A stretch of 64,000 nucleotides of DNA from Glycera tridactyla (GCA_965644265.1 OZ286461.1:96534001-96598000), one strand, 5' to 3'; positions 41,431 to 64,000 are shown, numbered from the stretch's first letter. Numbers and translations: made by a program. The notes: generated by a model from the sequence alone, not told the origin.

Positions 41431-43164
41431 GGTGAGGACATTGGTTATATTTTTGATGTCACGATGCTGTCATCACCAAGGGGACACCAGGTGTCAGAAT
41501 GACGCAATGGGTGCACCCATCAATACTGTATGCAGACTTTGGGAAGTCCCGAGATGTAGAGATGATGCTGTGTGCCATCAATAAGACCTAATATCGTTGA
41601 CGGCTTTACAGCAACCACATGTTTATGTGACGTGCTGAGCTGTGGTTGGTATATAGCTGGTCATGGGGTGATATCTTGTGGGGTTATCAGCGCAGAAGAT
41701 TAGACGTCCATTTTGCCAGCCATGCTCGATTAGTCTGCGAATGAGCATGGTCATCGTTTACATCATATATCAGAAATAGCGACAAGATTATATCTCCTAA
41801 AATCGTACCCAATCACCTCGAGGCTGAAAACCCCAAGCAGAATACCAAGCTCAGAATCACACTTTGTAATTTACCTGGATGGCCTCAAACATCCAACCGG
41901 AACAGCTCGAAAACAAAATGGACACATGTACACTGATACGCCTGTGATTTTGTCCTCGTTGCATAATAGAAGAAAATATCATGGCCCGTCTGAGCAAACA
42001 GTATACTACCGACTCACTGTTTTGTTACTGTGCAATTTCAGAAAAGTACCCGAAGTACTGTCTGAGCATTGTATGGTCTCTGTCGAACGCATTACCTCGT
42101 CCTCCCATCTCAGTCTTTATCATTAGCTAAAACATCCTGATCTGCACCGAGCTATAGATAATGCTATCTGATAATCCAAATCAATGGTAATCCCGTTTGT
42201 ACTCTCAAGGCACGGTTAATATATGGTTCTCATCCATAGATAGGGCGGGGAAGGGGGTAAGAGCATGTTGAGTTTCAATCAGCCTACAACCATTCAAGTG
42301 TAGTGTAGTAGTGCAGGTGTACACACCTCTCAGGCATCAACTTCATTATATAACGGTTTCTCCGACATGCTTATCCCTGTAAAGTCTCTTGCTGAACGGA
42401 AGACCTGATCAACCTTGTTCATCAAATAAATAAATCAATATGTGAAAAACTAGAATTACACCACTCCCACGCCTGACCCTACTTTCACTGATCTTCCTCA
42501 CGATAGTGCACCTCCGGCTATATCAAGCATCATCACTGTGGTAATTCTTGTACTGGGTTGATATTTTGTCTAAATTTGCATGCAATTATTCAACAACAGC
42601 GGGCACTGTCCGACAACTATCTTCTGTATCTCAATTACCGCTCTAATACCTCTAATATCCTGTAGGTATGCGATTCTGATAGTTTCAGGCCCTATTCTGG
42701 GCTACCTATAGGCGTCGTTTATGTGTGATAGGAGCAGAGTCATATCCATATCAAACCAATTTTGTAAATTGACAGGATGATTTCTCATGGAAGTGGCTTT
42801 TTTATGGGGGGGGGGGGGGGGTTATGAGGAATGCATAAGATGAGCCATCGTATTGCTCAACTGTGAGTCGTACTGTCATACATGCTATCATAGTGCCTAA
42901 TTAGTAATCGTACTGCCCAATTTGCCCAGGAGAGCAATAAATCCAACAGGAGCCCTCTTGAACACCAGACCATTCATGCGCAATGACACTTGCTATCGGA
43001 TTTGTCCTCGCAAAATAAGCACTTTTAGTACACACTGCTCAAGTGGCAATCACACTACCCAACCGGCTGGCATACTGCCCAACTGGTCATCATACCACCA
43101 GATTAGCTTTTATAATGTGCCCAATCGGCTTTATACCGCCCAACTGGCAACCGACTGTGCCTGA

Positions 43165-43780
43165 CTGGCCATCACACTGCCCAGCTGGCCACCATACAAC
43201 CAAACATACTATCATACTGCCCAGCTGGCCACCCCACTGCCCAACTTGCCACCATACAACCAAACATACTATCATACTGCCCAACTGGCCACCCCACTGC
43301 CCAGCTTGCCATCATACAACCAAACATACTATCATACTGCCCAACTGGCCACCACACTGCCAATCTTGCCACCATACAACCAAACATTCTATCATACTGC
43401 CCAACTGGCCATCACACTGCCCAGCTTGCCACCATACAACCAAACATACTATCATACTGCCCAACTGGCCATCACACTGCCCAGCTTGCCACCATACAAC
43501 CAAACATACTATCATACTGCCCAACTGGCCACCACACTGCCCAGCTTGCCACCATACAACCAAACATACTATCATACTGCCCAACTGGCCATCACACTGC
43601 CTAGCTCGCCACCATACAACCAAACATACTATCACACTGCCCAACTGGCCACCACACTGCCCGACTTGCCACCATACAACCAAACATTCTATCATACTGC
43701 CCAACTGGCCATCACACTGCCCAGCATGCCACCATACAACCAAACATACTATCATACTGCCCAACTGGCCATCATACTGT
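43165..43780. repeat. Tandem array, 60-bp unit (3 x 20-bp subunits), ~10 copies, with degenerate 20-mers on both flanks
   Basis: ACTGCCCAACTGGCCATCAC-ACTGCCCAGCTTGCCACCAT-ACAACCAAACATACTATCAT; successive 60-nt lines are nearly identical. Confidence 0.97.
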
Positions 43781-44779
43781 GCACAACAGACAATCGTATC
43801 TGCTCAACTGGCCACCATACTGCCAAGAAGGCAATAATCCTGTCTAACCGGTAATCATACTGTGCTCAACTGGCCATTACACTATCCTACTGCTCATAAT
43901 TCTGTTCGATATGCCATCTGAGTATGTCAACTGCGTTTGATACGTCACCAGAGTACCTACCCAGCAATCACAGTACCTTATAGCAATCGAACTGCCCAAC
44001 TTGTCAGCTCAAGTCATACCGACCATCACGCTGTAATGCCAAATCGGTATTCGCGCAGGCAATCTACTGCCCTACCGCCCAGCATACTACCCAAACGAAT
44101 ATCTCTTAACAAAAAGCCTCTCTTATTGGCAAACGACCGAACGATGGATATTTCGACTGCTCGATAGTCAATTTACTTGATAATCTATGCTGACCATCGA
44201 AATGAAGTTCTCATAAATCAGTCAATCTAATCAGTAAGCGACGATTTAATGAATCAGCCAAGCAATCGAGCATTGAACTGATCAACTGATCGAACAAGCG
44301 AGTGATCATTCCATCCTCTCTGTTACTCACACATCGATGGCGCAGTTGCATATTCAGTCCGATTACTCGCCAGCAAGTCGGCTGACGGCCAGCAAGTCTG
44401 TAATGTGGGCTTCCTCAGTTGTGTCTCGGCAAAGGGTGGGGGTCAAGGGTTCAAAACCTGCAGACAATGCTGAATGACAAGTGGCGGCACGTGACAAGGA
44501 TACCGGAAGAACACTCTGATTAGCTCGGCAACATATGTGCTGCATCAACAAGAGTCCACAGCCCCCTTCCTAGCATCACCACGGCTCCTGACATATGAGC
44601 GAAATCTTATTTCTACGTCTCTCAATTTCGAACCAACCTTCACTGGCACTGACAGTAGGACCCCATCTCTATTGTAATGTACCTGTGCTCAGTAGGATCA
44701 ATCGATAGTTAGGGTAATGACTATATTGCCAAGAATTGACGCGACTTCATCTTCTGGGAATCATTCTCATTCATCGACA

Positions 44780-49300: not shown

Positions 49301-52060
49301 ATTATTTCACTTTTATACTGTCTAACTATCCGTCATGTGACCCATCTGTCTCTCATACTCTCCACCTATCCACCATGCTGGCTATTTGGCTAACCAGCAT
49401 TACAATAATTGAAACGTAGATGAAGACAATAGTGAGTGACACGTGAGAGTGTGTGATTAGAATATCATTAGATCACTGTTTGTGGGCAGGCGGCGTAGAT
49501 GCTACATCTCAGGCAGTTCACCAACCTCCGCCTGATTAGCATTGTTCTTGACATTATGAGCATTGTTCTTGACATTATGAGCTAGATAACCTCAGCTCTC
49601 CATACAGGTCAGATCATGCGGGAAATATCCCATGCACATCATTCATGTCTGTTACCCAGCACTGTCCACTGGTGTAGAAACTTCTGGAAATTGACTTAAT
49701 TAATTATACAGTCGTATTCATTCCTTGCCAAGTAGGATTTTGCACAGAGCATTATAGATGTGCCTGAAATATTTTTGCCCATAACAGGGAGTGGCCTATG
49801 TCATGTTGGAGGTGGAACTGAAATACCGGAAATATGTAGGGAAGACACACCATATATCTTTAAACAACAATTCATGGGCAATTTTGATTTTGTCCAAGAA
49901 ATTTTGTCCAAAATTTGCATCCAGTAGGACCAAAAAATGTTCACACCTCCACATTTCAGATTTTGCGTTTATGGGCAGAGGAAGATACAACCAACAAACC
50001 GATCAAACAAAGGATCAGGGAATTCATCAGACAATGCCCATCGCACTGGCAATATATGATGTTGAGAGCAGAATATTTGATTGGGCTCCGAGGCATGTAA
50101 CTATTCACCCATCCACCTATCTATGCATATATCCGTGCTTCCGCCCGTGCTCCCACCTGTCTGTCTGTCTGTCTGTTCATTCGCAAGGTTGAGCTAGATG
50201 TCTGTGGATAACACTACCAATATATTGTGAGAATTGGATAACCAAGATATATGAGAAAACACTTCGGAAGTACTAACCGATCCGAGAAATGTAGAACAAA
50301 ATAGTTTACCACCTAAATCATAAATGATTGATATATTTTTAATCATGTGAGTTCGCGTTTCTTTTTGCAACCGAATATCTCTGATACGTAATTAAATTTC
50401 TCGATTGCTGAAAAGATTACATCTGAAGTGTAGGCGTGATATCGACATTGAAATAATGTTTGTACTTTCTGGAGCTGTAGAAGATTCGGCAGAAAGAGGA
50501 GCGGTTCGACAAGTGTGCTGGTCCAGTCAGTGCATCACCAATGAGAGGCAATTTCACAGTTGCCAGGTACGAATTACCATAATCTCCAACAAGTATAAAA
50601 ACGACTAGAGTGAAAGCATCTGGATTTGAATAACCCTTCGGTTCATATTGTGTAAACAAACTTTGAGAAATTCGCATTTTTCATCATGCTCAGAACACAG
50701 GAGGACAACGAGGGAAATAAGTATCTATGCGACCACTCATCGAGCAATCTTAGTTAGTATTCCCTATCTTCTGTGCAGCTTCCATGTCGGCAAGACTCGG
50801 ATCATCTGCCCCGCCTGATACATCATGAATATATCTGAATGGACAACACTCTCATGGTTACATCACATGAGTAGCTCGAATGCACCTTCCTGGCTCGATC
50901 TGCTGTGTTGTGTAAACCCTGCAGGCTGAATATAGGAGGGGAGAGGTTTATTTATGATTCGGGAGGTTGCATCATGTCTTCTTCCCTGGCGACAACGTGA
51001 CATTTTATCTTGGAGCAGATGGAGGCAGTCTGAACAGCTGATCTGCTATAACACAACGTGAAAAATTGTCATATTTGATATTGAATGTACGTATAATGTT
51101 ATCTCCATAAGTTACTTGTTAAGCTCCCTTTTTAAGTTTTTTGATACCATATCTGATGACACCTGTTGCAGTAAGACGAACAAGACATTTGATTCAACCT
51201 CCGGCATCTTTTATGGATGACGTGCAATTAATCGCACAATCATATCGCATGTTATTTCAAACTGATGTCTCAAACTGATGTCTAATTCGCGCCCGGGAAA
51301 GAGACACGGAGTTCGAAGATTCAAGTGAATTGTTGAACATCTCGATGGATTGCACAACATTCACTCCTTGTAGACACGCCATCCATCTGGCTACTTACAG
51401 AATTCGTTTCTCATGGTCGGCTTCCCTGAATTTCGATTGATGAAATGAATATATTTTGAGAAAAAGTGACTTCGGATGAGGGCATTCTAGCCCTCCTGTA
51501 TATATGGTGTGTCACTTGCACAAGATGTGCCATAGCTATGATCAATATTGAATTGTGACTCTGATAATGATGTACTACGTATGATCGAACATATATATAT
51601 ATATATGGGTCATAACCAATAATTGTATCTGAGGCACATATGTTCAGAAACATTATACTAATCTTGCTATGTCGATAATTTCATGAAAACTAGTTGTGTT
51701 TAGTTTCATTTTCACTGTGAAATCCATCCCACAATTAAACTGGACATTAATGAGCGAAATTCCTGATTGAAATAGCATTCAGGCATCGAAATCTTCTTTG
51801 TCCTGCATTATTCATAGGGTCACGGAACCAGTGTAGGGATCCAACACTTGCTCGAAATTGTGATAAAAATGACGAGATACAACATATAGCCACCAGCAAA
51901 TGTAATGAAGAAAGATGCCTGGCCGGCTTTTACTTGAAGTAATGTGTCATGAAGTTACCCGATGCATAATCAGCAGTTTCTAATGCATTATTACTATTAT
52001 ATAAAGTATTTCTTGACGGACAACATGGCTGACAAGAACTCTTTGAAGGTCATCTGGTGG

Positions 52061-52877
52061 CTGATCTGGATGTTGCGCTTGATAATGAGTGTATAGGGTG
52101 CATCTTGTGATGAAGACCACTCTAATTTGTATGACAGACAGCTGGATGTTCTCTTATCTGATCTGATCTAGATGTTGCCGCTTGATAATGAGTGTATACG
52201 GTGGATCTCGTGATGAAGACCACTCTAATTTATATGACAGACAGCTGGATGTTCTCTTATCTGATCTGATCTGGATGTTGCTGCTTGATAATGAGTGTGT
52301 ACGGTGGATCTCGTGATGAAGACCACTCTAATTTGTATGACAGACAGCTGCATGTTCTCTTATCTGATCTGATCTGGATGTTGCTGCTTGATAATGAGTG
52401 TGTACGGTGGATCTCGTGATGAAGACCACTCTAATTTGTATGACAGACAGCTGGATGTTCTCTTATCTGATCTGATCTGGATGTTGCTGCTTGATAATGA
52501 GTGTGTACGGTGGATCTCGTGATGAAGACCACTAATTTGTATGACAGACAGCTGGATGTTCTCTTATCTGATCTGATCTGGATGTTGCTGCTTGATAATG
52601 AGTGTATACTGTGGATCTCGTGATGAAGACCACTCTAATTCGTATGACGGACAGCTTGATGTTCTCTTATCTGATCTGATCTGGATGTTGCCGCTTGATA
52701 ATGAGTGTATACGGTGCATCTCGTGATGAAGACCACTCTAATTTGTATGATGGACAGCTGCATGTTCTCTTATCTGATCTGATCTGGATGTTGCCACTTG
52801 ATAATGAGTGTATACGGTGCATCTCGTGATGGAGACCACTCTAATTTGTATGACGGACAGCTTGATGTTCTCTTATC
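52061..52877. repeat. Tandem array, 103-bp unit, ~8 copies
   Basis: GATGTTGC unit starts at 52069, 52171, 52274, 52377, 52480, 52581, 52684 and 52787; one 1-bp and one 2-bp deletion. Confidence 0.97.
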
Positions 52878-53257
52878 CCCTCCCAAATGTTCACTCACAT
52901 GCACTCAACTACTTATGACATTCCCTTTCGCGTGGGTTCGAGTAAATTAGCAATGGAATTCAGTCAGAACATGCAAGAGACGTTCCGTACTCGCCATTAA
53001 CACAATGATGTATCCGCCGCGAGAATAGAATCATCTTGTGTCTCACTGACAACACTTTCCAACCATCTCTACCCATCCTAATCTGAAACTTCTTTGTGAG
53101 ATTGAATGTTATCTCATGCAACTATATGCCACCATGGCATCCTCAGTATGCCACACCAAGTCCATATTCAACACACAATTTGAGACGAATTCCAACGAAT
53201 TCCACCTCTCGTTCCCTCCCTTGATTTGAGGGGGGAAACGCTCTAGCCAGATCTCGA

Positions 53258-53580
53258 AAAAAACATAATTTTTGAAATAAATTAATTTTTGTAGTTGAAA
53301 ATGATAGCTGTTATATTTGGAGGAATGAGTTATGACAACTTGTGAACACAGATGGCGGTTATTTTTTGATTATTAATTTTTATTAATTATCCGACAAACA
53401 AATACTATTGCAGAATGTTGATATATGTATTGTCCGTGTTGACCAATTTGTTGATTATGATAAAAAGGAAAAAAGAGTCTTATTTTAGGTTGTGTGTATG
53501 GAATTGAGGGTACCAGTAGAGACGGCTATAAAAGGGTCAACAACACAGTGACTCTTCCCATTCTTGTTATACAGTTGAAG
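53258..53580 (+). repeat. Split direct repeat A1 (323 bp)
   Basis: Matches 59395-59717 and 60220-60542 (AAAAAACATAAT...CAGTTGAAG). Confidence 0.96.
53527..53564 (+). promoter_or_regulatory. Candidate Pol II core promoter in repeat A (TATA box plus Inr)
   Basis: TATAAAAG at 53527-53534 and Inr-like CCA(+1)TTCT with A at 53560, 33 nt downstream. Also present in A2 (59664) and A3 (60489). Confidence 0.6.
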
Positions 53581-54464
53581 TAAGCAGGTTGCTCAGGTCG
53601 ATTTCAGATAGGATTTTGGCGGGAAACATGGTGTCAGTTGGAGTTAACCCGTCTTTATCGTATATACCTATACGACAGTGGATAAATTGGAAAGTTAAGG
53701 TTGCCGTACTAGGGCATTCCTTTACTAGACATCAAAGTGAGGAATTACTTGAGGAAATGAAAACCATGGGAGTTTATGAGGAGGTTACACAAGGATTAAT
53801 GCATAGAGGTAGGGTGAATGCTGAGATTTTGAAAGTGGATGATGTGATTGATGTGGTGAATTTCAGAACATGTCCTTTTATCAAGACATATGGAAACAAT
53901 GATCAAATAGAGTTGGAATTTCTCGCGATGGCAGCCTTGAAACCTGATGTACTGATAATCGATTTGGGGAGCAATGACTTGTGTAAAAGTGAGGTTGATC
54001 CAGCAACTCTTGCAGTTGATTTGTTTGAATTAGCAGTCAATTTGCGTCATGCTGGAATAGAGATGGTCATGTTTATGGCATGCTTAGATCGCGTAAAAGG
54101 ACCATCGGATTTCAGAGCAAGAGCGAGAACTTTCAATCAAAAACTGAAATACTGCTGTGATTATGCTAAAAACAGTGGTGGCCTTGGGTTCTATAACACC
54201 AAAGGTTTTGGAAGTTTGGAGGAAGGAGAACCATCACATGTGTATGAATGGAGTGTGGATGGCATTCACCCAATGAGAAACAGTAGATATTTCATGAGAT
54301 ACAGATATGAAGTAAGAAAGGCTATATGGAAAGGAGTAGTAGGCTTTGGGAAAGTTCTAATAGACCTGAGCAACTGAAGAAAATTGGTAGAGAATGGGAA
54401 TTTGTATTTATAATATGTATGTATAATGCAGCCATGAGCTGTGCTCTCATTAACATAATTTCAG
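53580..54464 (+). other. Predicted 885-nt intron containing the whole SGNH ORF
   Basis: Donor GAA|GTAAGC at 53579/53580; acceptor CTCTCATTAACATAATTTCAG|ATG ending at 54464, directly before the gag start. Motif-based only. Confidence 0.55.
53628..54377 (+). CDS. SGNH/GDSL-family hydrolase (esterase), 249 aa from ATG 53628
   Basis: Block I VAVLGHSF (nucleophile Ser), block III IIDLGSNDL, block V DGIHP. The track starts at TTG 53589, but the first ATG is 53628 in strong context (AACATGG). Confidence 0.9.
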   Translation: MVSVGVNPSLSYIPIRQWINWKVKVAVLGHSFTRHQSEELLEEMKTMGVYEEVTQGLMHRGRVNAEILKVDDVIDVVNFRTCPFIKTYGNNDQIELEFLAMAALKPDVLIIDLGSNDLCKSEVDPATLAVDLFELAVNLRHAGIEMVMFMACLDRVKGPSDFRARARTFNQKLKYCCDYAKNSGGLGFYNTKGFGSLEEGEPSHVYEWSVDGIHPMRNSRYFMRYRYEVRKAIWKGVVGFGKVLIDLSN

Positions 54465-56459
54465 ATGGCGAACAAGAGGAAAGTTGCAGATACGGCAGGA
54501 AGTGATCAGAAAAGAAGGAAAGAAGCTCCGGATGATACGGTAGATGATACTGAGTTTCAAGATGTAGTAGAACCTGCAGGTGTTCCGCTTTGTTCACCAC
54601 AGGTTGGGGTAGACAAATACACATCAGTATCAGAAAGCCATAGTACTACACAAACTTTTGAAGGCCAAAGTGATCAAGATGTAGTGGGAAGTGGGTTGAC
54701 TTTTGGCCAAAAGCTGGATCGCCTTAAGCGACACGCAGAAAACATATGCAGTATGCGCACACGAACAATGACACAAGGAGTTGGTGGTTACCCAAGGTTA
54801 GGTCAATCTGTGAGTCACATACCATCTTTTGGTACATATACACACCAAGGGAGACAAAGGGAGGCAACGGCAACGTCAACGGGAGGAGAAAGAAATTATT
54901 CTGTTGCAGATGTAAGACAAGATCTACAAACAGCAATGAATTCAGCCGTTACACAAATGGGTGCTCTCACGAATCTAATGTCTGGTATACAGGAACAACT
55001 GGACAGCTTGTCAGATTTGTCAAGTCGCCAGGAGGATCAGCAACCAACCAGTCAACCACAACCAAATGTACATCAAAATATGCAAGGTGAGCACCATAAC
55101 ACAAGGTTTGGGGATATACCACAGCAGAGTGAGCAAGCACGCATGTTTGACAAATACAGACAATGGGTGAAAGGTCAAAATGCTAGAAACACACAACGAA
55201 CTGACATATCAACTCATGAAACAGGTGAAACAAACATTGACAATACAACGAACGCTGACCGCACATACAGGTTGAATGAACCGGACCATGACCAGTTGAA
55301 TGCGAGCAACATTGCTCAGTTTCAGGGGGCAGGTTCACCAATACATACCGACAATACTTTGCCATTGAATGTATGGGATAGAGGAGGTTCTTTAATATGC
55401 GGGCAGTGGAGTGGTCCTGGAAATATTTCATCATCATTTGATATGTTAGAGGGTTTAAGAAGTAGTGTAACAAATTGCAGGCAAAAGCAAGATTCCTTGT
55501 TTCGAGATGCAGCGATTAATTTGGGAATGAGAGATGTAAGAAATGATGCCAGCAGAAAAAATAACAAATCGCCTTTTCAACGTAATAGTAATAGTTCAAC
55601 TAACTTTCAGCATGCAAATTACCAAGGTCCAACAGTCACAAGCGGGGACCAACAATTGCCAACTATATATGGAAGTAACCCCCCTCAACCTCAAAATAGG
55701 GTTCATTTCGGGGATCCAATGTCAAGACACATAGTATCAGGGGGGATGCCTATAGGATATAAAATAGAGTTAGAAACGAAAATAGATATATGGCAAGACA
55801 GGTACGTAGACTTAGCGGAATTGTTGCAACCACAAAAAATAACAGATCATCATTATATAGTTGACAGGAAAACAGGGGAGTTTGTTCTAGCTAAACGTAA
55901 ACGCATAATAAGAACAATTAAGGATTGGGATGAAGCATTCTTAGTTTATGTTGCCATATATAACCAAAATCCAGTAAAAAATATTGAGCAAAAAGCAAGG
56001 GAGGGGGAGGAGTTATTATCATACATAAATGATGTAAGGGGAATTGCAGCAAAAAGGGGAGATTTCAAACTTTATGATGAGGAGTTTTGCATGCAGCGAT
56101 CGTATTTACAAGAACCATATCCATGGAATTCATACCATGCTAAATTGTATCATGAATGTAGTCAACCAGTGAGTTTTCAGACAAATTATGTTAATAGATA
56201 TGAATCTAGTAGCAACTTCACACAGCAAAACAATGGCAACCAAATGAGAAAAGGTTACTGTTTCGCATATAACTCTGCAAATAGGAGATGTATCATACCG
56301 AGATGTCCATTCAAACACGTATGTTCTAGTTGTCAGCTAAGGCACCCTGTCTTCCAATGCAGGTCTGGGGCGAACCAATCAGGAAACAGTCAAGCGGGAG
56401 GAATTAAGAAAAAGCCTGGTAACACCAACGACACCAATAAACCACCAGAGTCTACTTAA
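54465..56459 (+). CDS. gag: Gag-like protein, 664 aa
   Basis: KIDIWQDRYVDLAELL, IRTIKDWDEAFLVY and LYDEEF core segments typical of DIRS/Ngaro Gag; C-terminal C-x9-C-x4-C-x3-H plus C-x2-C-x3-H-x4-C zinc-finger cluster. Confidence 0.88.
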   Translation: MANKRKVADTAGSDQKRRKEAPDDTVDDTEFQDVVEPAGVPLCSPQVGVDKYTSVSESHSTTQTFEGQSDQDVVGSGLTFGQKLDRLKRHAENICSMRTRTMTQGVGGYPRLGQSVSHIPSFGTYTHQGRQREATATSTGGERNYSVADVRQDLQTAMNSAVTQMGALTNLMSGIQEQLDSLSDLSSRQEDQQPTSQPQPNVHQNMQGEHHNTRFGDIPQQSEQARMFDKYRQWVKGQNARNTQRTDISTHETGETNIDNTTNADRTYRLNEPDHDQLNASNIAQFQGAGSPIHTDNTLPLNVWDRGGSLICGQWSGPGNISSSFDMLEGLRSSVTNCRQKQDSLFRDAAINLGMRDVRNDASRKNNKSPFQRNSNSSTNFQHANYQGPTVTSGDQQLPTIYGSNPPQPQNRVHFGDPMSRHIVSGGMPIGYKIELETKIDIWQDRYVDLAELLQPQKITDHHYIVDRKTGEFVLAKRKRIIRTIKDWDEAFLVYVAIYNQNPVKNIEQKAREGEELLSYINDVRGIAAKRGDFKLYDEEFCMQRSYLQEPYPWNSYHAKLYHECSQPVSFQTNYVNRYESSSNFTQQNNGNQMRKGYCFAYNSANRRCIIPRCPFKHVCSSCQLRHPVFQCRSGANQSGNSQAGGIKKKPGNTNDTNKPPEST

Positions 56460-58005
56460 ATGGTTGGAAGGTTATGAAGAAAGTGAAAGAGAATATCTGG
56501 TAAATGGTTTTGCGCAGGGTTTCGATATAGGGTTTAAAAGTATATCACCAGGGTATAGAGGGCGCAACCCAGATTCCATTAAGCAATATATCGATATTGC
56601 TAAAGATTTGATTTACGCAGACGTAGTGTTGGATAGAATTGCAGGCCCTTTCACAGAAGTACCTTTTTGTAACTTTCACATTTCACCGATTAGCGTAGTC
56701 CCAAAGAGAGAGCAAGGAAAATATAGATTGATACACAACCTGTCTTCACCATATAATCATTTGTCAATAAATCATCACATACCTGATAATGAAGCATCTG
56801 TAAAATACATGACTGTTGATACAGTAATTAATCATGTTTTAGAAGTAGGGAGACAAGCTTATATTTGCAAAGCGGACATTAAGTCTGCATTTAGGATAGT
56901 GCCAGTAAAACCTGAGCAATTTCACTTATTGGGGATGAGGTTGGAGAATGAATATTTTGTCAATAAATGCTTAGCTATGGGGGGTAGATCTTCTTGTAGA
57001 ATATTTGAGAGGTTTTCAACAGCAATACAGTGGGTTTGTAATAATAAATTAGGAATAAAATACATGGCACATATGATTGACGACTACTGTATTGTAGCAG
57101 AGGGGGAAAGAGAGTGCAATAAGCAGCTACAAACTTTCAAATCATTCTGTGAAAATGTGGGTATACCGTTATGTCCCAAAAAGACCCAACCACCAAATCA
57201 AATCATGGAATTCTTGGGAGTAGAAATTAATGTAATAGAGGGATATGCCAAAATTCCAGTAAACAAACTTTTGAAGTATGCACAACAAATAAACGATATA
57301 GTAGAAGCAGGCAGATGTTCTTATGGAGATATGCGCTCATTGGTAGGCAAATTAAATTGGTGTGCGTCTCTAATAAAGGTGGGAAAATCCTTTTTAAGGG
57401 GATTGATAAACAGTACAAAAGGATTGAAAAATCCAGCACATTTTGTCACATTTTCGGAACATATGAGAAATGATCTCATCATGTGGCGCATGTTTCTGAG
57501 AGAATATAATGGTTATTCATATTTAAGACACAGAGCATTACAAAGGATGGAAACAGAACACATACAGTCAGATGCTTGCAAAACGGGGGCAGCAGTAATT
57601 TTCAGAAATTTGTGGTTCTATTTGGAATACAAGAATGATTGGCAGAACAAAAACATCGCTTACCAAGAGATGTATCCTATCCTGGTTGCAATGGTGGTCT
57701 TTAGATCATCTCTCAGAAACAATAAAGTCATATTTCATTGCGATAACATGGCAGTGGTGGAGGTGCTGAGTAAGAGAAGAGGGAAAGATGAGGAACTGGT
57801 ACGTTTGTTGAGACACATAAGTTTGATGGCATTACACAATGATGTGGATATTGATTGCAAGCATGTTGCAGGAACGGATAATGTTTTGGCTGACAAGTTG
57901 TCACGATATCAGTTTTCGCAGGTGTTCTTGATGGAAGCAGGATTAGCAGTACATCCAGTTCCAGTTCCGCAGGAATACAACCCTCAGGTTTGTGGGATCT
58001 GGTAA
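56341..58005 (+). CDS. pol: Reverse transcriptase / RNase H (frame open from 56341, overlapping the gag end; track start 56464)
   Basis: TPTTPIN...GF..GFDIG N-terminus, ISPISVVPK, KYRLIHNLS, ADIKSAFRIVPV, LAMGGRSSCRIF, HMIDDY; RNase H SDA, EMYP, HCDN, NVLADKLSR. Confidence 0.95.
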   Translation, partial: GTLSSNAGLGRTNQETVKREELRKSLVTPTTPINHQSLLKWLEGYEESEREYLVNGFAQGFDIGFKSISPGYRGRNPDSIKQYIDIAKDLIYADVVLDRIAGPFTEVPFCNFHISPISVVPKREQGKYRLIHNLSSPYNHLSINHHIPDNEASVKYMTVDTVINHVLEVGRQAYICKADIKSAFRIVPVKPEQFHLLGMRLENEYFVNKCLAMGGRSSCRIFERFSTAIQWVCNNKLGIKYMAHMIDDYCIVAEGERECNKQLQTFKSFCENVGIPLCPKKTQPPNQIMEFLGVEINVIEGYAKIPVNKLLKYAQQINDIVEAGRCSYGDMRSLVGKLNWCASLIKVGKSFLRGLINSTKGLKNPAHFVTFSEHMRNDLIMWRMFLREYNGYSYLRHRALQRMETEHIQSDACKTGAAVIFRNLWFYLEYKNDWQNKNIAYQEMYPILVAMVVFRSSLRNNKVIFHCDNMAVVEVLSKRRGKDEELVRLLRHISLMALHNDVDIDCKHVAGTDNVLADKLSRYQFSQVFLMEAGLAVHPVPVPQEYNPQVCGIW

Positions 58006-58889
58006 ATCAGTTAATTGATTCCTCGTTCGCTGATACAACAATGAAACAGTATAATACAGTTTGGGAAGAATTTGAGGAATTTTTATGGCAAAGATCTTTG
58101 AGTTTGAGTCACGAAGCATTATGCGTTTATGTGGCTTTTCTAGTAAATAAAGGATATAAAGTCACATCGATCAGATCAAAATTAGCCGCTATATCTCATG
58201 GGCTAAAAGTCAGAGATTGTCCAGATTTTTGTAAGCATTATGTTATTAATAGAATGTTAACGGGGGCTACAAGGAAGGGATTGGAAGGAGACAAAAGATT
58301 AGGGGTAGGGGAAACTATTTTGAGAAAAATAGTTGAATCATATCCCATCATAGCAATCAATCAATATGAATTAGTATTATTTCGCACACTATTTGTTTGG
58401 GCTTATACAGCATGTATGAGGGTTTCGGAATATGCAGAAACAGGGACCAGTGAGCATAAAGTGATGATGGAGGATTTGAGGGTAGCGGAAAGACATGGGG
58501 AAGTGGTGGCGTTCCAGCTCAGTTTTAGGTCATACAAGTGTTCAAGGGGAGAAAGGCGATTTATCGTGGAGAGGCGCGAAGGCGACATCTTGTGCCCAGT
58601 TGCGAGAATGGTGGAGTGGCTTAACGTTAGAGGGCGTGAATCAGGACCGCTGTTTGGTATAAAAGGTAAGGCGGTGTCGGCGGGGATGGTGAACGATAGG
58701 TTAAAGAAGGCAGCAAGATTTGTATTAGGTCAAAATTTGGGGAGTCGTGTTTCAAGTCATTCTTTTCGAATTGGTCGTTGCACAGACTGGGTTGAACAGG
58801 GATATACAGAAGAACAAATCAAATTAAAGGGAAGGTGGGCCTCAAACGCATTCAAATCATACATCCGCTCTCCAGCAGTTCCTTTATAG
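57990..58889 (+). CDS. Tyrosine recombinase (frame open from 57894; first ATG 58041)
   Basis: Catalytic set MRVSE (R), SHSFRIG (H-x-x-R), GRW (W), FKSYIR (Y); N-terminal SAM-like domain T...Y...W..F..F. Confidence 0.95.
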   Translation: MWDLVNQLIDSSFADTTMKQYNTVWEEFEEFLWQRSLSLSHEALCVYVAFLVNKGYKVTSIRSKLAAISHGLKVRDCPDFCKHYVINRMLTGATRKGLEGDKRLGVGETILRKIVESYPIIAINQYELVLFRTLFVWAYTACMRVSEYAETGTSEHKVMMEDLRVAERHGEVVAFQLSFRSYKCSRGERRFIVERREGDILCPVARMVEWLNVRGRESGPLFGIKGKAVSAGMVNDRLKKAARFVLGQNLGSRVSSHSFRIGRCTDWVEQGYTEEQIKLKGRWASNAFKSYIRSPAVPL

Positions 58890-58917: not shown

Positions 58918-59394
58918 GGCCAGCTTGGCCCATCTATATACTACAGGAAGTCAATATGTTGCAATAATACTATGCCAAAACAAATCAATGAACTGTCGTG
59001 GAAATCCACTGTTATGATATAGCACGAATATCATCACGTTGTCTGGACAGGTTGGGCTGGATGGCTATTTCATTATTAAAAGGATATAAAGAAGTAGCGG
59101 TACAGTTTGATCAGTTTATTTCCATTGAAATATACTGATTTCGGCCAGAACAACATGTCGAAGTTCAGGTGAACTTCTGTTTAAAACAGCGCTGCTAGGC
59201 ATTTCTTTTAGGCAAGGGGATCGGAAAAGGCAGAATGAGCCGTTACATGAAGTGCCTAGTGGCACAGGTTTTGTACAAAAGATTTTGTAAATAAATTGGC
59301 AAATATGAATTGTGGAAAATGTTAATTATTCGTTGAATGAATGAGAGTTTCACAACAGGGGTGGTGAAACTAGTATGTGCTTCTGAGAAACAAC
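58918..59394 (+). repeat. Split direct repeat B1 (477 bp)
   Basis: Matches 59743-60219 with one substitution seen (TATTCGTT vs TATTTGTT); contains AATAAA at 59290. Confidence 0.96.
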
Positions 59395-59717
59395 AAAAAA
59401 CATAATTTTTGAAATAAATTAATTTTTGTAGTTGAAAATGATAGCTGTTATATTTGGAGGAATGAGTTATGACAACTTGTGAACACAGATGGCGGTTATT
59501 TTTTGATTATTAATTTTTATTAATTATCCGACAAACAAATACTATTGCAGAATGTTGATATATGTATTGTCCGTGTTGACCAATTTGTTGATTATGATAA
59601 AAAGGAAAAAAGAGTCTTATTTTAGGTTGTGTGTATGGAATTGAGGGTACCAGTAGAGACGGCTATAAAAGGGTCAACAACACAGTGACTCTTCCCATTC
59701 TTGTTATACAGTTGAAG
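59395..59717 (+). repeat. Split direct repeat A2
   Basis: Copy of A1; followed by ACC rather than TAAGC. Confidence 0.96.
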
Positions 59718-59742
59718 ACCACCACCAACCCCACCACCACCT

Positions 59743-60219
59743 GGCCAGCTTGGCCCATCTATATACTACAGGAAGTCAATATGTTGCAATAATACTATGC
59801 CAAAACAAATCAATGAACTGTCGTGGAAATCCACTGTTATGATATAGCACGAATATCATCACGTTGTCTGGACAGGTTGGGCTGGATGGCTATTTCATTA
59901 TTAAAAGGATATAAAGAAGTAGCGGTACAGTTTGATCAGTTTATTTCCATTGAAATATACTGATTTCGGCCAGAACAACATGTCGAAGTTCAGGTGAACT
60001 TCTGTTTAAAACAGCGCTGCTAGGCATTTCTTTTAGGCAAGGGGATCGGAAAAGGCAGAATGAGCCGTTACATGAAGTGCCTAGTGGCACAGGTTTTGTA
60101 CAAAAGATTTTGTAAATAAATTGGCAAATATGAATTGTGGAAAATGTTAATTATTTGTTGAATGAATGAGAGTTTCACAACAGGGGTGGTGAAACTAGTA
60201 TGTGCTTCTGAGAAACAAC
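59743..60219 (+). repeat. Split direct repeat B2 (3' end of copy 1)
   Basis: Copy of B1; AATAAA at 60115-60120. Confidence 0.96.
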
Positions 60220-60589
60220 AAAAAACATAATTTTTGAAATAAATTAATTTTTGTAGTTGAAAATGATAGCTGTTATATTTGGAGGAATGAGTTATGACAA
60301 CTTGTGAACACAGATGGCGGTTATTTTTTGATTATTAATTTTTATTAATTATCCGACAAACAAATACTATTGCAGAATGTTGATATATGTATTGTCCGTG
60401 TTGACCAATTTGTTGATTATGATAAAAAGGAAAAAAGAGTCTTATTTTAGGTTGTGTGTATGGAATTGAGGGTACCAGTAGAGACGGCTATAAAAGGGTC
60501 AACAACACAGTGACTCTTCCCATTCTTGTTATACAGTTGAAGTAAGCAGGTTGCTCAGGTCGATTTCAGATAGGATTTTGGCGGGAAAC

Positions 60590-61339
60590 ATGGTGTCAGT
60601 TGGAGTTAACCCGTCTTTATCGTATATACCTATACGACAGTGGATAAATTGGAAAGTTAAGGTTGCCGTACTAGGGCATTCCTTTACTAGACATCAAAGT
60701 GAGGAATTACTTGAGGAAATGAAAACCATGGGAGTTTATGAGGAGGTTACACAAGGATTAATGCATAGAGGTAGGGTGAATGCTGAGATTTTGAAAGTGG
60801 ATGATGTGATTGATGTGGTGAATTTCAGAACATGTCCTTTTATCAAGACATATGGAAACAATGATCAAATAGAGTTGGAATTTCTCGCGATGGCAGCCTT
60901 GAAACCTGATGTACTGATAATCGATTTGGGGAGCAATGACTTGTGTAAAAGTGAGGTTGATCCAGCAACTCTTGCAGTTGATTTGTTTGAATTAGCAGTC
61001 AATTTGCGTCATGCTGGAATAGAGATGGTCATGTTTATGGCATGCTTAGATCGCGTAAAAGGACCATCGGATTTCAGAGCAAGAGCGAGAACTTTCAATC
61101 AAAAACTGAAATACTGCTGTGATTATGCTAAAAACAGTGGTGGCCTTGGGTTCTATAACACCAAAGGTTTTGGAAGTTTGGAGGAAGGAGAACCATCACA
61201 TGTGTATGAATGGAGTGTGGATGGCATTCACCCAATGAGAAACAGTAGATATTTCATGAGATACAGATATGAAGTAAGAAAGGCTATATGGAAAGGAGTA
61301 GTAGGCTTTGGGAAAGTTCTAATAGACCTGAGCAACTGA
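60590..61339 (+). CDS. SGNH hydrolase, copy 2
   Basis: Protein identical to copy 1. Confidence 0.9.
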   Translation: MVSVGVNPSLSYIPIRQWINWKVKVAVLGHSFTRHQSEELLEEMKTMGVYEEVTQGLMHRGRVNAEILKVDDVIDVVNFRTCPFIKTYGNNDQIELEFLAMAALKPDVLIIDLGSNDLCKSEVDPATLAVDLFELAVNLRHAGIEMVMFMACLDRVKGPSDFRARARTFNQKLKYCCDYAKNSGGLGFYNTKGFGSLEEGEPSHVYEWSVDGIHPMRNSRYFMRYRYEVRKAIWKGVVGFGKVLIDLSN

Positions 61340-61426
61340 AGAAAATTGGTAGAGAATGGGAATTTGTATTTATAATATGTATGTATAATGCAGCCATGAG
61401 CTGTGCTCTCATTAACATAATTTCAG

Positions 61427-63421
61427 ATGGCGAACAAGAGGAAAGTTGCAGATACGGCAGGAAGTGATCAGAAAAGAAGGAAAGAAGCTCCGGATGATAC
61501 GGTAGATGATACTGAGTTTCAAGATGTAGTAGAACCTGCAGGTGTTCCGCTTTGTTCACCACAGGTTGGGGTAGACAAATACACATCAGTATCAGAAAGC
61601 CATAGTACTACACAAACTTTTGAAGGCCAAAGTGATCAAGATGTAGTGGGAAGTGGGTTGACTTTTGGCCAAAAGCTGGATCGCCTTAAGCGACACGCAG
61701 AAAACATATGCAGTATGCGCACACGAACAATGACACAAGGAGTTGGTGGTTACCCAAGGTTAGGTCAATCTGTGAGTCACATACCATCTTTTGGTACATA
61801 TACACACCAAGGGAGACAAAGGGAGGCAACGGCAACGTCAACGGGAGGAGAAAGAAATTATTCTGTTGCAGATGTAAGACAAGATCTACAAACAGCAATG
61901 AATTCAGCCGTTACACAAATGGGTGCTCTCACGAATCTAATGTCTGGTATACAGGAACAACTGGACAGCTTGTCAGATTTGTCAAGTCGCCAGGAGGATC
62001 AGCAACCAACCAGTCAACCACAACCAAATGTACATCAAAATATGCAAGGTGAGCACCATAACACAAGGTTTGGGGATATACCACAGCAGAGTGAGCAAGC
62101 ACGCATGTTTGACAAATACAGACAATGGGTGAAAGGTCAAAATGCTAGAAACACACAACGAACTGACATATCAACTCATGAAACAGGTGAAACAAACATT
62201 GACAATACAACGAACGCTGACCGCACATACAGGTTGAATGAACCGGACCATGACCAGTTGAATGCGAGCAACATTGCTCAGTTTCAGGGGGCAGGTTCAC
62301 CAATACATACCGACAATACTTTGCCATTGAATGTATGGGATAGAGGAGGTTCTTTAATATGCGGGCAGTGGAGTGGTCCTGGAAATATTTCATCATCATT
62401 TGATATGTTAGAGGGTTTAAGAAGTAGTGTAACAAATCGCAGGCAAAAGCAAGATTCCTTGTTTCGAGATGCAGCGATTAATTTGGGAATGAGAGATGTA
62501 AGAAATGATGCCAGCAGAAAAAATAACAAATCGCCTTTTCAACGTAATAGTAATAGTTCAACTAACTTTCAGCATGCAAATTACCAAGGTCCAACAGTCA
62601 CAAGCGGGGACCAACAATTGCCAACTATATATGGAAGTAACCCCCCTCAACCTCAAAATAGGGTTCATTTCGGGGATCCAATGTCAAGACACATAGTATC
62701 AGGGGGGATGCCTATAGGATATAAAATAGAGTTAGAAACGAAAATAGATATATGGCAAGACAGGTACGTAGACTTAGCGGAATTGTTGCAACCACAAAAA
62801 ATAACAGATCATCATTATATAGTTGACGGGAAAACAGGGGAGTTTGTTCTAGCTAAACGTAAACGCATAATAAGAACAATTAAGGATTGGGATGAAGCAT
62901 TCTTAGTTTATGTTGCCATATATAACCAAAATCCAGTAAAAAATATTGAGCAAAAAGCAAGGGAGGGGGAGGAGTTATTATCATACATAAATGATGTAAG
63001 GGGAATTGCAGCAAAAAGGGGAGATTTCAAACTTTATGATGAGGAGTTTTGCATGCAGCGATCGTATTTACAAGAACCATATCCATGGAATTCATACCAT
63101 GCTAAATTGTATCATGAATGTAGTCAACCAGTGAGTTTTCAGACAAATTATGTTAATAGATATGAATCTAGTAGCAACTTCAAACAGCAAAACAATGGCA
63201 ACCAAATGAGAAAAGGTTACTGTTTCGCATATAACTCTGCAAATAGGAGATGTATCATACCGAGATGTCCATTCAAACACGTATGTTCTAGTTGTCAGCT
63301 AAGGCACCCTGTCTTCCAATGCAGGTCTGGGGCGAACCAATCAGGAAACAGTCAAGCGGGAGGAATTAAGAAAAAGCCTGGTAACACCAACGACACCAAT
63401 AAACCACCAGAGTCTACTTAA
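61427..63421 (+). CDS. gag: Gag-like protein, copy 2
   Basis: 664 aa; differs from copy 1 at three residues (C>R, R>G, T>K). Confidence 0.88.
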   Translation: MANKRKVADTAGSDQKRRKEAPDDTVDDTEFQDVVEPAGVPLCSPQVGVDKYTSVSESHSTTQTFEGQSDQDVVGSGLTFGQKLDRLKRHAENICSMRTRTMTQGVGGYPRLGQSVSHIPSFGTYTHQGRQREATATSTGGERNYSVADVRQDLQTAMNSAVTQMGALTNLMSGIQEQLDSLSDLSSRQEDQQPTSQPQPNVHQNMQGEHHNTRFGDIPQQSEQARMFDKYRQWVKGQNARNTQRTDISTHETGETNIDNTTNADRTYRLNEPDHDQLNASNIAQFQGAGSPIHTDNTLPLNVWDRGGSLICGQWSGPGNISSSFDMLEGLRSSVTNRRQKQDSLFRDAAINLGMRDVRNDASRKNNKSPFQRNSNSSTNFQHANYQGPTVTSGDQQLPTIYGSNPPQPQNRVHFGDPMSRHIVSGGMPIGYKIELETKIDIWQDRYVDLAELLQPQKITDHHYIVDGKTGEFVLAKRKRIIRTIKDWDEAFLVYVAIYNQNPVKNIEQKAREGEELLSYINDVRGIAAKRGDFKLYDEEFCMQRSYLQEPYPWNSYHAKLYHECSQPVSFQTNYVNRYESSSNFKQQNNGNQMRKGYCFAYNSANRRCIIPRCPFKHVCSSCQLRHPVFQCRSGANQSGNSQAGGIKKKPGNTNDTNKPPEST

Positions 63422-64000
63422 ATGGTTGGAAGGTTATGAAGAAAGTGAAAGAGAATATCTGGTAAATGGTTTTGCGCAGGGTTTCGATATAGGGTTTAAA
63501 AGTATATCACCAGGGTATAGAGGGCGCAACCCAGATTCCATTAAGCAATATATCGATATTGCTAAAGATTTGATTTACGCAGACGTAGTGTTGGATAGAA
63601 TTGCAGGCCCTTTCACAGAAGTACCTTTTTGTAACTTTCACATTTCACCGATTAGCGTAGTCCCAAAGAGAGAGCAAGGAAAATATAGATTGATACACAA
63701 CCTGTCTTCACCATATAATCATTTGTCAATAAATCATCACATACCTGATAATGAAGCATCTGTAAAATACATGACTGTTGATACAGTAATTAATCATGTT
63801 TTAGAAGTAGGGAGACAAGCTTATATTTGCAAAGCGGACATTAAGTCTGCATTTAGGATAGTGCCAGTAAAACCTGAGCAATTTCACTTATTGGGGATGA
63901 GGTTGGAGAATGAATATTTTGTCAATAAATGCTTAGCTATGGGGGGTAGATCTTCTTGTAGAATATTTGAGAGGTTTTCAACAGCAATACAGTGGGTTTG
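63303..64000 (+). CDS. pol: RT/RNase H, copy 2, 5' part only
   Basis: Matches 56341 onward by eye; runs off the window before the DD motif. Confidence 0.9.

Follow-up and report, generated by a model that had tools for sequence, protein, structure and literature searches.

A Ngaro-type retrotransposon of Glycera tridactyla with an SGNH hydrolase gene in a probable intron, and the likely expression of its four frames by alternative splicing

The stretch of DNA analysed here, called the window in the following, comprises 64,000 nucleotides (nt) of Glycera tridactyla (GCA_965644265.1 OZ286461.1:96534001-96598000) and lies on C7 of the 2.04-Gb genome. It contains two head-to-tail copies of a tyrosine-recombinase retrotransposon, which are 99.9% alike, are spaced at 6962 nt and have many related families in the same genome. 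On one strand the order of the element is repeat A1, an SGNH hydrolase open reading frame (ORF), a gag-like ORF, a reverse transcriptase/RNase H (RT/RH) frame, a tyrosine recombinase (YR) frame, and the repeats B1 and A2, a spacer and B2. We consider it likely that this is a Ngaro-type element which carries its hydrolase gene in an intron and expresses four frames from one promoter by alternative splicing. The location of the SGNH ORF in a spliceosomal intron is supported by the conservation of the splice sites and by two independent, base-exact losses in the genome. The features of the element are as follows.

53258..53580, + strand: split direct repeat A1 (promoter, start site, exon 1), 100% identical to A2 (59395-59717) and A3 (60220-60542)
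53527..53533, + strand: TATA box TATAAAA, its function predicted from the donor that follows at a constant distance in most families
53557..53579, + strand: predicted exon 1 of about 23 nt, free of AUGs in the copy described; 5' edge from a helix boundary, 3' edge from intron-less copies
53580..54464, + strand: intron 1, 885 nt, GT..AG, contains the SGNH ORF; the homologous 901 nt are missing to the base in the copies L122 and L181
53628..54377, + strand: SGNH/GDSL hydrolase ORF, 249 amino acids (aa); PF13472 with E 2.9e-7 and 31.6 bits, just under the cut-off of 32.9
54465..56459, + strand: gag-like ORF, 664 aa, basic N-terminus, C-terminal Cys/His finger, no Pfam match
56341..58005, + strand: RT/RNase H frame, 554 codons; PF00078 with E 2.5e-13, PF13456; first ATG at 56809 within the RT domain
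57894..58889, + strand: tyrosine recombinase frame, 331 codons; PF00589 with E 0.0087, below the cut-off; HSFR and a late Tyr present
58918..60219, + strand: B1 (58918-59394), A2 (59395-59717), C-rich spacer, B2 (59743-60219)
60220..64000, + strand: second tandem copy (99.9%), equivalent sites shifted by 6962; its own B1-A2-B2 lie past the end of the window (L159)

The element is Ngaro-type according to the feature list in PMC4157794. Split direct repeats of the form A1...B1-A2-B2, with the inner repeats 3' of YR, are present, and the gag-like, RT/RH and YR frames follow one another on a single strand, the Pfam match of the YR being weak and the label "gag" of the 664-aa ORF being based on its position and its finger. 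No methyltransferase domain was found among the Pfam matches to E 0.05, and the RT frame stops about 30 residues past RNase H. The split direct repeats together with the missing methyltransferase therefore indicate a Ngaro-type element; the repeats would also fit a PAT-like element, but the methyltransferase domain of such elements was not found.

The protein encoded first has the motifs GHS, GSND and DGIH, which correspond to the GxS, GxND and DxxH blocks, and all three patterns were matched in 24 of 29 other families. Judged by these motifs it appears to be a lipase-like SGNH hydrolase; a PDB search with the protein gave nothing beyond TesA at E 0.75. The sequence TTTTGGCGGGAAA at 53615-53627, just 5' of the SGNH ATG, resembles an E2F site. 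Motifs of this kind recur in related families, in some of them also just before the start site.

For the comparisons 118 loci were screened. In 36 of them all four frames were unbroken and their lengths lay between preset bounds, and the other 82 were dropped; eight loci, including the processed copies L122 and L236, had been excluded beforehand. The 36 loci form 29 families at 85% RT identity, and the family of the window was added by hand, which gives 30. Among the 29 families the RT nucleotide identity is 56-82% (median 61%). L271 and L274 stand outside the comparisons, and donor scores use general metazoan frequencies. At about 74% nucleotide identity the nonsynonymous divergence (dN) is low, with 0.10 for SGNH and 0.11 for RT; only dN is given, because dN/dS is mostly saturated.

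A sequence-only reading of the window had proposed that the hydrolase ORF sits inside an intron of 885 nt, between a donor GAA/GTAAGC and an acceptor TTTCAG that ends directly before the gag ATG, and that the SGNH start AACATGG is the first AUG. On re-reading all of its positions were right: the GT of the donor is at 53580, TTTCAG ends at 54464, the gag ATG is at 54465, and AACATGG is the first ATG after donor 1. Its proposal to look for both sites in diverged relatives also gave a clear result. Donor 1 was found by script in 28 of the 30 families, 51-55 nt past the TATA box, and the other two have AAG/GT at the same place. Its position +3 is a purine in 28/28, and +5 is G in only 5/28, which makes it a weak site. 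In 26 of these 28 families the first ATG past the donor is in the SGNH frame. At the other end a YAG precedes the gag ATG by 0-1 nt in 28 of the 30 families (AAG in the other two), compared with 87 of 1362 (6%) other in-frame ATGs. AG is depleted at -25..-3 before gag, with 3 in 660 as against 104 in 2751 over the remaining spacer, and the acceptor AG is retained where the gag ATG is shifted by 1-17 nt. A TATAWA within the spacer between SGNH and gag occurs in 2/30 families only. By this conservation the GT donor and the YAG acceptor of intron 1 are under selection, in agreement with a U2-type intron.

The same reading had noted that the G of the donor is the last base of repeat A, so that the donor exists at A1 and A3 and not at A2. 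This holds in the window, where A2 is followed by ACC and A3 by the same donor as A1, but not as a general rule, since in 29 other loci (19 + 10) the identity of A1 and A2 ends 0-4 nt 5' of the GT. The shared base is a one-base accident of the clade of the window, and the robust fact is therefore that repeat A ends where exon 1 ends. All three families with A at -1 of donor 1 have G at +5, compared with 2/25 of those with G at -1; two of the three are close kin. Such a trade-off between -1 and +5 is the usual compensation at U1 sites. Tracts of (GTT)n, which could be splicing-regulator sites, stand after donor 1 and after the SGNH stop in many families.

Two copies, L122 (C47) and L181 (C26), have the end of A joined directly to the gag ATG. 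In comparison to sisters which are 93-97% alike they lack 901 nt starting with GT and ending with AG, without microhomology; GT..AG ends were seen in 0/20 other deletions read by eye. Both keep the A1 and B2 ends and each has its own flanks. They are 93.5% alike and come from different subfamilies: L122 shares variants with the intron-bearing L182 and L183 at 8 sites, L181 with the intron-bearing L137 and L185 at 16 sites, and among 15 listed variant classes none is common to the two alone. Because each of them shares variants with different intron-bearing sisters, two events are likely. This indirectly indicates an exact removal of intron 1 via an RNA stage, as expected of a U2-type intron.

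When other clades were searched by pattern for copies without the intron, 34 matches came up (control 5), of which only L122 and L181 were real; 30 loci and five regions were checked, the last two C47 rows by printed letters only. The candidate L204/L231 proved to be a decayed copy with a mutated donor. Among 135 distinct gag starts SGNH lies upstream in 133 and two are intron-less, a proportion that is not a genome-wide rate, because the sample was enriched for SGNH-less candidates. The sequence-only reading had further stated that the intron must be retained in the RNA that is reverse transcribed. This went too far, since RNA without the intron has been copied and has integrated, its ends intact, and retention is therefore the rule but not a must. 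Intron-less RNA is able to complete the cycle, but rarely does.

A second donor, D2, lies within gag, and candidate acceptors precede the RT and YR domains.

54465..55086, + strand: exon 2, the first 207 gag codons, predicted shared N-terminus of the Gag, RT and YR products
55087..55092, + strand: donor D2, AAG/GTGAGC, phase 1; the homologous site is the 5' break in the copy L236
56348..56362, + strand: candidate RT acceptor, phase 1, its AG ending at 56362; L236 uses an AG 6 nt upstream, in the same phase
57907..57921, + strand: candidate YR acceptor, phase 1, its AG ending at 57921; predicted only, from CAG conservation

Phase 1 gives the best D2 of the three phases in 27 of the 30 families, at offsets of 540-720 (766-772 in two longer gags), and the median best donor score is 4.0 for phase 1 as compared with -4.1 and -5.2 for the other phases. 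The AG/GT bases are kept although the preceding residue varies (Q, E, S, T, G), the codon preceding D2 ends in A whichever residue it codes for, and +3 is A in 28/30 families. CAG/GT at the gag motifs 'EPAG' and 'PQVG' was considered as second donor and dropped, as it is not conserved. On the acceptor side a phase-1 YAG is found within -1..+20 of the last gag Cys in 29/30 families, and families that have lost the usual RT site show a CAG in phase 1 located 17-20 nt further on. The candidate RT acceptor coincides in part with the codons for Cys-Arg in the gag finger. At the start of YR the Gln codon of RNase H is CAG in 25/25 cases, compared with 147/421 (35%) elsewhere in RT, and stops in the YR frame lie 10-40 nt upstream of the YR acceptor in 27 of the 30 families. 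The first Met of RT lies more than 200 nt past the acceptor region and gag finger in 20/30 families, and that of YR past the first conserved helix of the YR in 16/30 (two YR anchors are misplaced).

The RT search revealed, in 132 rows, one frame of 762 codons. This copy, L236, which is one of 23 close copies, lacks 1135 nt from the homologous D2 to a phase-1 AG located 6 nt before the predicted RT acceptor; exon 2 and RT are joined in frame, and intron 1 is kept. D2 and its phase had been recorded before L236 was found. Four YR rows, whose open frames have 887, 492, 381 and 368 codons, were retrieved, and none of them is a GagN-YR join. A further RT listing includes rows of 1241 and 1156 codons, outside the set retrieved.

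The likely 5' end of the RNA can pair with a segment beside the SGNH stop.

53557..53566, + strand: 5' arm of a covarying 10-bp helix, at the likely 5' end of the RNA
54389..54398, + strand: 3' arm of the helix, within intron 1 and beside the SGNH stop; complementary to the 5' end of the RNA

At least 9 of the 10 pairs are formed in 26/30 families, and four columns show C-G/U-A exchanges (15/10, 11/15, 16/10 and 7/19). The longest helix comes to 10.4 bp within families, 6.2 across families and 5.6 in shuffled sequences (0/10000 permutations). The five positions upstream are mostly unpaired, and the edge of the helix lies 29-30 nt past the TATA box in 24/24 scored families. Because of this sharp edge we place the start site at about 53557. 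The start is still a prediction, and the position near 53560 that was given for it before is less likely than the one given here. Since the 3' arm is removed together with intron 1, the helix can form only in intron-retaining RNA. Whether it helps to set retention, or marks intron-retaining RNA for copying, we judge to be about evenly balanced against its having no such part.

RNA was represented by four contig sets of low depth (X1-X4, with 7, 6, 29 and 9 records), for which the kind of sample is uncertain. An X2 contig starting at 54466 was not counted, because it is one base off, and neither was an X4 contig ending at 53580, where repeat A stops. In one X4 contig 370 nt of gag (54540-54909) are skipped, with GT..AG at the ends and out of frame. 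A genomic deletion of 392 nt in L008/L158 (G000:C39:37929766) has the same end AG as this skip, but starts with GA; the AG at 54909 is possibly a cryptic acceptor.

Taken together, these sites suggest the following scheme. Transcription would start near 53557 from one promoter in A, with an exon 1 of 23 nt. The unspliced RNA would normally be the one that is reverse transcribed, and SGNH alone would be translated from it, because 34 AUGs precede the gag AUG. Removal of intron 1 would very probably give Gag. If D2 is in addition spliced to the RT acceptor, a GagN-RT/RH protein of 754 aa is the likely product, and splicing of D2 to the YR acceptor would, with less assurance but still on balance probably, give a GagN-YR protein of 529 aa. 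The shared N-terminus of 207 aa would give RT and YR the AUG they are missing, and through it both enzymes may be drawn into the Gag particle. As donor 1 is without +5 G in 23/28 families, part of the RNA could stay unspliced. We infer from the order of the AUGs which protein each RNA makes. More tentatively, and with slightly less than even confidence, the whole may be seen as a programme of four products, a complex retrovirus turned round, in which the spliced Gag, GagN-RT and GagN-YR act in trans, the genomic RNA encodes only the hydrolase, and the helix between the capped end and the hydrolase stop marks the RNA that is kept unspliced and copied. The earlier proposal that the genomic RNA encodes the enzyme and the spliced RNA Gag has gained from the evidence on intron 1; the scheme is likely to be larger, with a second donor in gag that would serve RT and probably YR.

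Several points weigh against this scheme. The splice junctions and the products are inferred from DNA. The joint 53579-54465 is absent from the listed records of X1-X4, whose coverage at the junction is thin, and an X3 contig of unknown kind (53385-53881), which begins 170 nt upstream of the predicted start, crosses donor 1 unspliced. Counts over 30 families overstate independence, because the families are kin. An AUG stands in exon 1 in 4/28 families, the ten gag matches of the window's own family include no intron-less copy, and the tree of the relatives of L122 and L181 has low support (28-65). L086 has no phase-1 YAG near the last Cys, and phase 1 at the RT and YR acceptors is not evidence in itself, because it partly follows from the overlapping frames. 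A loss of the L236 type was seen as one event only. Its junction has a microhomology of 4 nt (AGGT), so that a DNA repair deletion is possible; such a microhomology is typical of splice sites and repair deletions alike. In 131, 131 and 132 overlapping YR rows there is none with an open frame near 530 codons, as a GagN-YR copy would have. Folding favours the helix (P over 0.5) in no more than 20/30 families, with 0.97 in the window, and copies without it still integrated.

An alternative is that there is no splicing at all, SGNH being an upstream ORF, gag being reached from a promoter in the spacer or by reinitiation, and GT and AG being kept as repeat end and start-codon context. The end of repeat A, a repeat with a part of its own in replication, lies at donor 1, the spacer is AT-rich in this copy, and the X3 contig passes the donor unspliced. 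We regard this explanation as very improbable and largely refuted by the two independent base-exact GT..AG losses without microhomology, by the AG that is kept when detached from the ATG and follows an AG-poor zone, by the rarity of TATAWA in the spacers and by the five AUGs in the spacer of this copy. It is also unlikely, though less so, that intron 1 gives Gag while RT and YR arise through ribosomal frameshifting, leaky scanning or initiation at non-AUG codons, in which case L236 would be a repair deletion, and D2 and the two inner acceptors would reflect protein constraints. The microhomology of L236, the lack of a YR fusion copy, the overlap of the RT acceptor with the Cys-Arg codons and the overlapping frames that are usual in this group (PMC9210276) would all agree with this. 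Against it stand the D2 nucleotides conserved across five different residues, CAG as the sole Gln codon at the YR site, rarer elsewhere in RT, the phase-1 CAG found further on in families without the usual RT site, and the break of L236 at a site that was predicted beforehand.

A further alternative concerns the helix only and is compatible with the splicing scheme: the helix could be an internal complementary region (ICR) for reverse transcription as in DIRS-1, with the cDNA end or A2 pairing with an inner site, and not a signal for splicing or sorting. DIRS-1 cannot transpose without its ICR (PMC7192593), A2 contains the 5' arm as well, and pairing begins exactly at the likely end of the RNA. 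L122 and L181 lack the 3' arm and yet have complete A1 and B2 ends; the helix is therefore not essential for reverse transcription, and we think a role as ICR less likely than not.

Within the tandem pair A follows directly after B2, and comparable tandems are found in L061, L143, L247, L252 and L255. The C-rich spacer between A2 and B2 (59718-59742) is kept in every family compared for it. Many sister copies are clustered at C1:93-95 Mb and C42:29-30 Mb. Some families (L059-L061, L065; C1:93.7-95.1 Mb, C13:72.7 Mb) sit amid tRNA genes, and tRNA-like pieces were found with a relaxed ARAGORN threshold within the spacer between SGNH and gag (L059, L065) or in repeat A (L060); some families may target tRNA genes. 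The window also contains an intact endonuclease-RT frame of 966 codons from a non-LTR (long terminal repeat) retrotransposon at 21041-23941 on the minus strand, and tandem arrays at 225-2812, 43038-43877 and 52019-52934 with periods of 104, 20/60 and 103 nt, respectively. A search for SGNH homologues in other species found none, no gag-type N-terminus was seen in the nine that were read of 84 long RT homologues, and a metagenome scan found nothing.

The closest known elements are DIRS-53_XT and DIRS-54_XT from Xenopus, which are Ngaro-like and have a hydrolase ORF of unproven function after YR (PMC9210276). In common with the element described here they have the A1...B1-A2-B2 repeats, gag-like, RT/RH and YR frames, no methyltransferase and an extra SGNH ORF. 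Their hydrolase lies 3' of YR, whereas here it comes first, in an intron before gag, and SGNH precedes gag in 133/135 cases. In the accessible text of that paper 'splic' and 'intron' do not occur. The Ngaro element of Cafeteria is described with a gag-like ORF1, and splicing is not mentioned in the accessible part of PMC8547959; that of PMC9341512 contained nothing relevant. An SGNH esterase on a retrotransposon is known from ORF1p of ZfL2-1, which is active and binds lipids (PMC3905857), but ZfL2-1 is a non-LTR element and its esterase is fused to a coiled coil.

Precedents for the splicing are found in other systems. The Ty1/Copia element EVD of Arabidopsis makes Gag from a spliced subgenomic RNA, and its full-length RNA is unspliced (PMC5580714). 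The full-length Copia RNA still begins with gag, however, whereas the unspliced RNA proposed here would make neither Gag nor the RT and YR enzymes, and splicing would open the gag frame and not shorten it. Foamy viruses make Pol from a spliced RNA by means of a suboptimal site, and their major donor lies near the cap in the terminal repeat (PMC5035957). The spliced polymerase RNA, the weak site and the donor near the cap in a repeat are thus shared. Foamy viruses obtain Gag from the unspliced RNA and a Pol that is not joined to it, in contrast to RT and YR here, which would carry the first 207 Gag residues. DIRS-1 of Dictyostelium is likewise a YR retrotransposon in which an inner sequence is complementary to an end; its RT acts in trans, and its cDNA partly retained a test intron inserted ahead of ORF1 (PMC7192593). 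Its repeats are inverted, its ICR lies close to the 3' end, and no native intron is described in the available part of that source. A literature search, made mostly at title level and not extending to Repbase reports, the first papers on Ngaro or the review by Poulter and Butler, found neither native splicing of Ngaro RNA nor a hydrolase before gag, and no account of how Ngaro elements express RT and YR.

The evidence thus supports the proposal of an intron around the hydrolase ORF and widens it to a larger splicing scheme; new here are the conserved phase-1 donor in gag, the copy with exon 2 joined to RT in frame, the predicted YR acceptor and the covarying helix. In elements of the DIRS order the frames overlap, and RT and YR are often without a usable start codon. 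The clade described here offers a concrete and testable answer to how they are expressed, namely that both are spliced to a common N-terminus taken from Gag. In this clade the hydrolase, whose function is unproven, also occupies the only place that links it to the genomic RNA, and the element can be copied without the hydrolase in cis.

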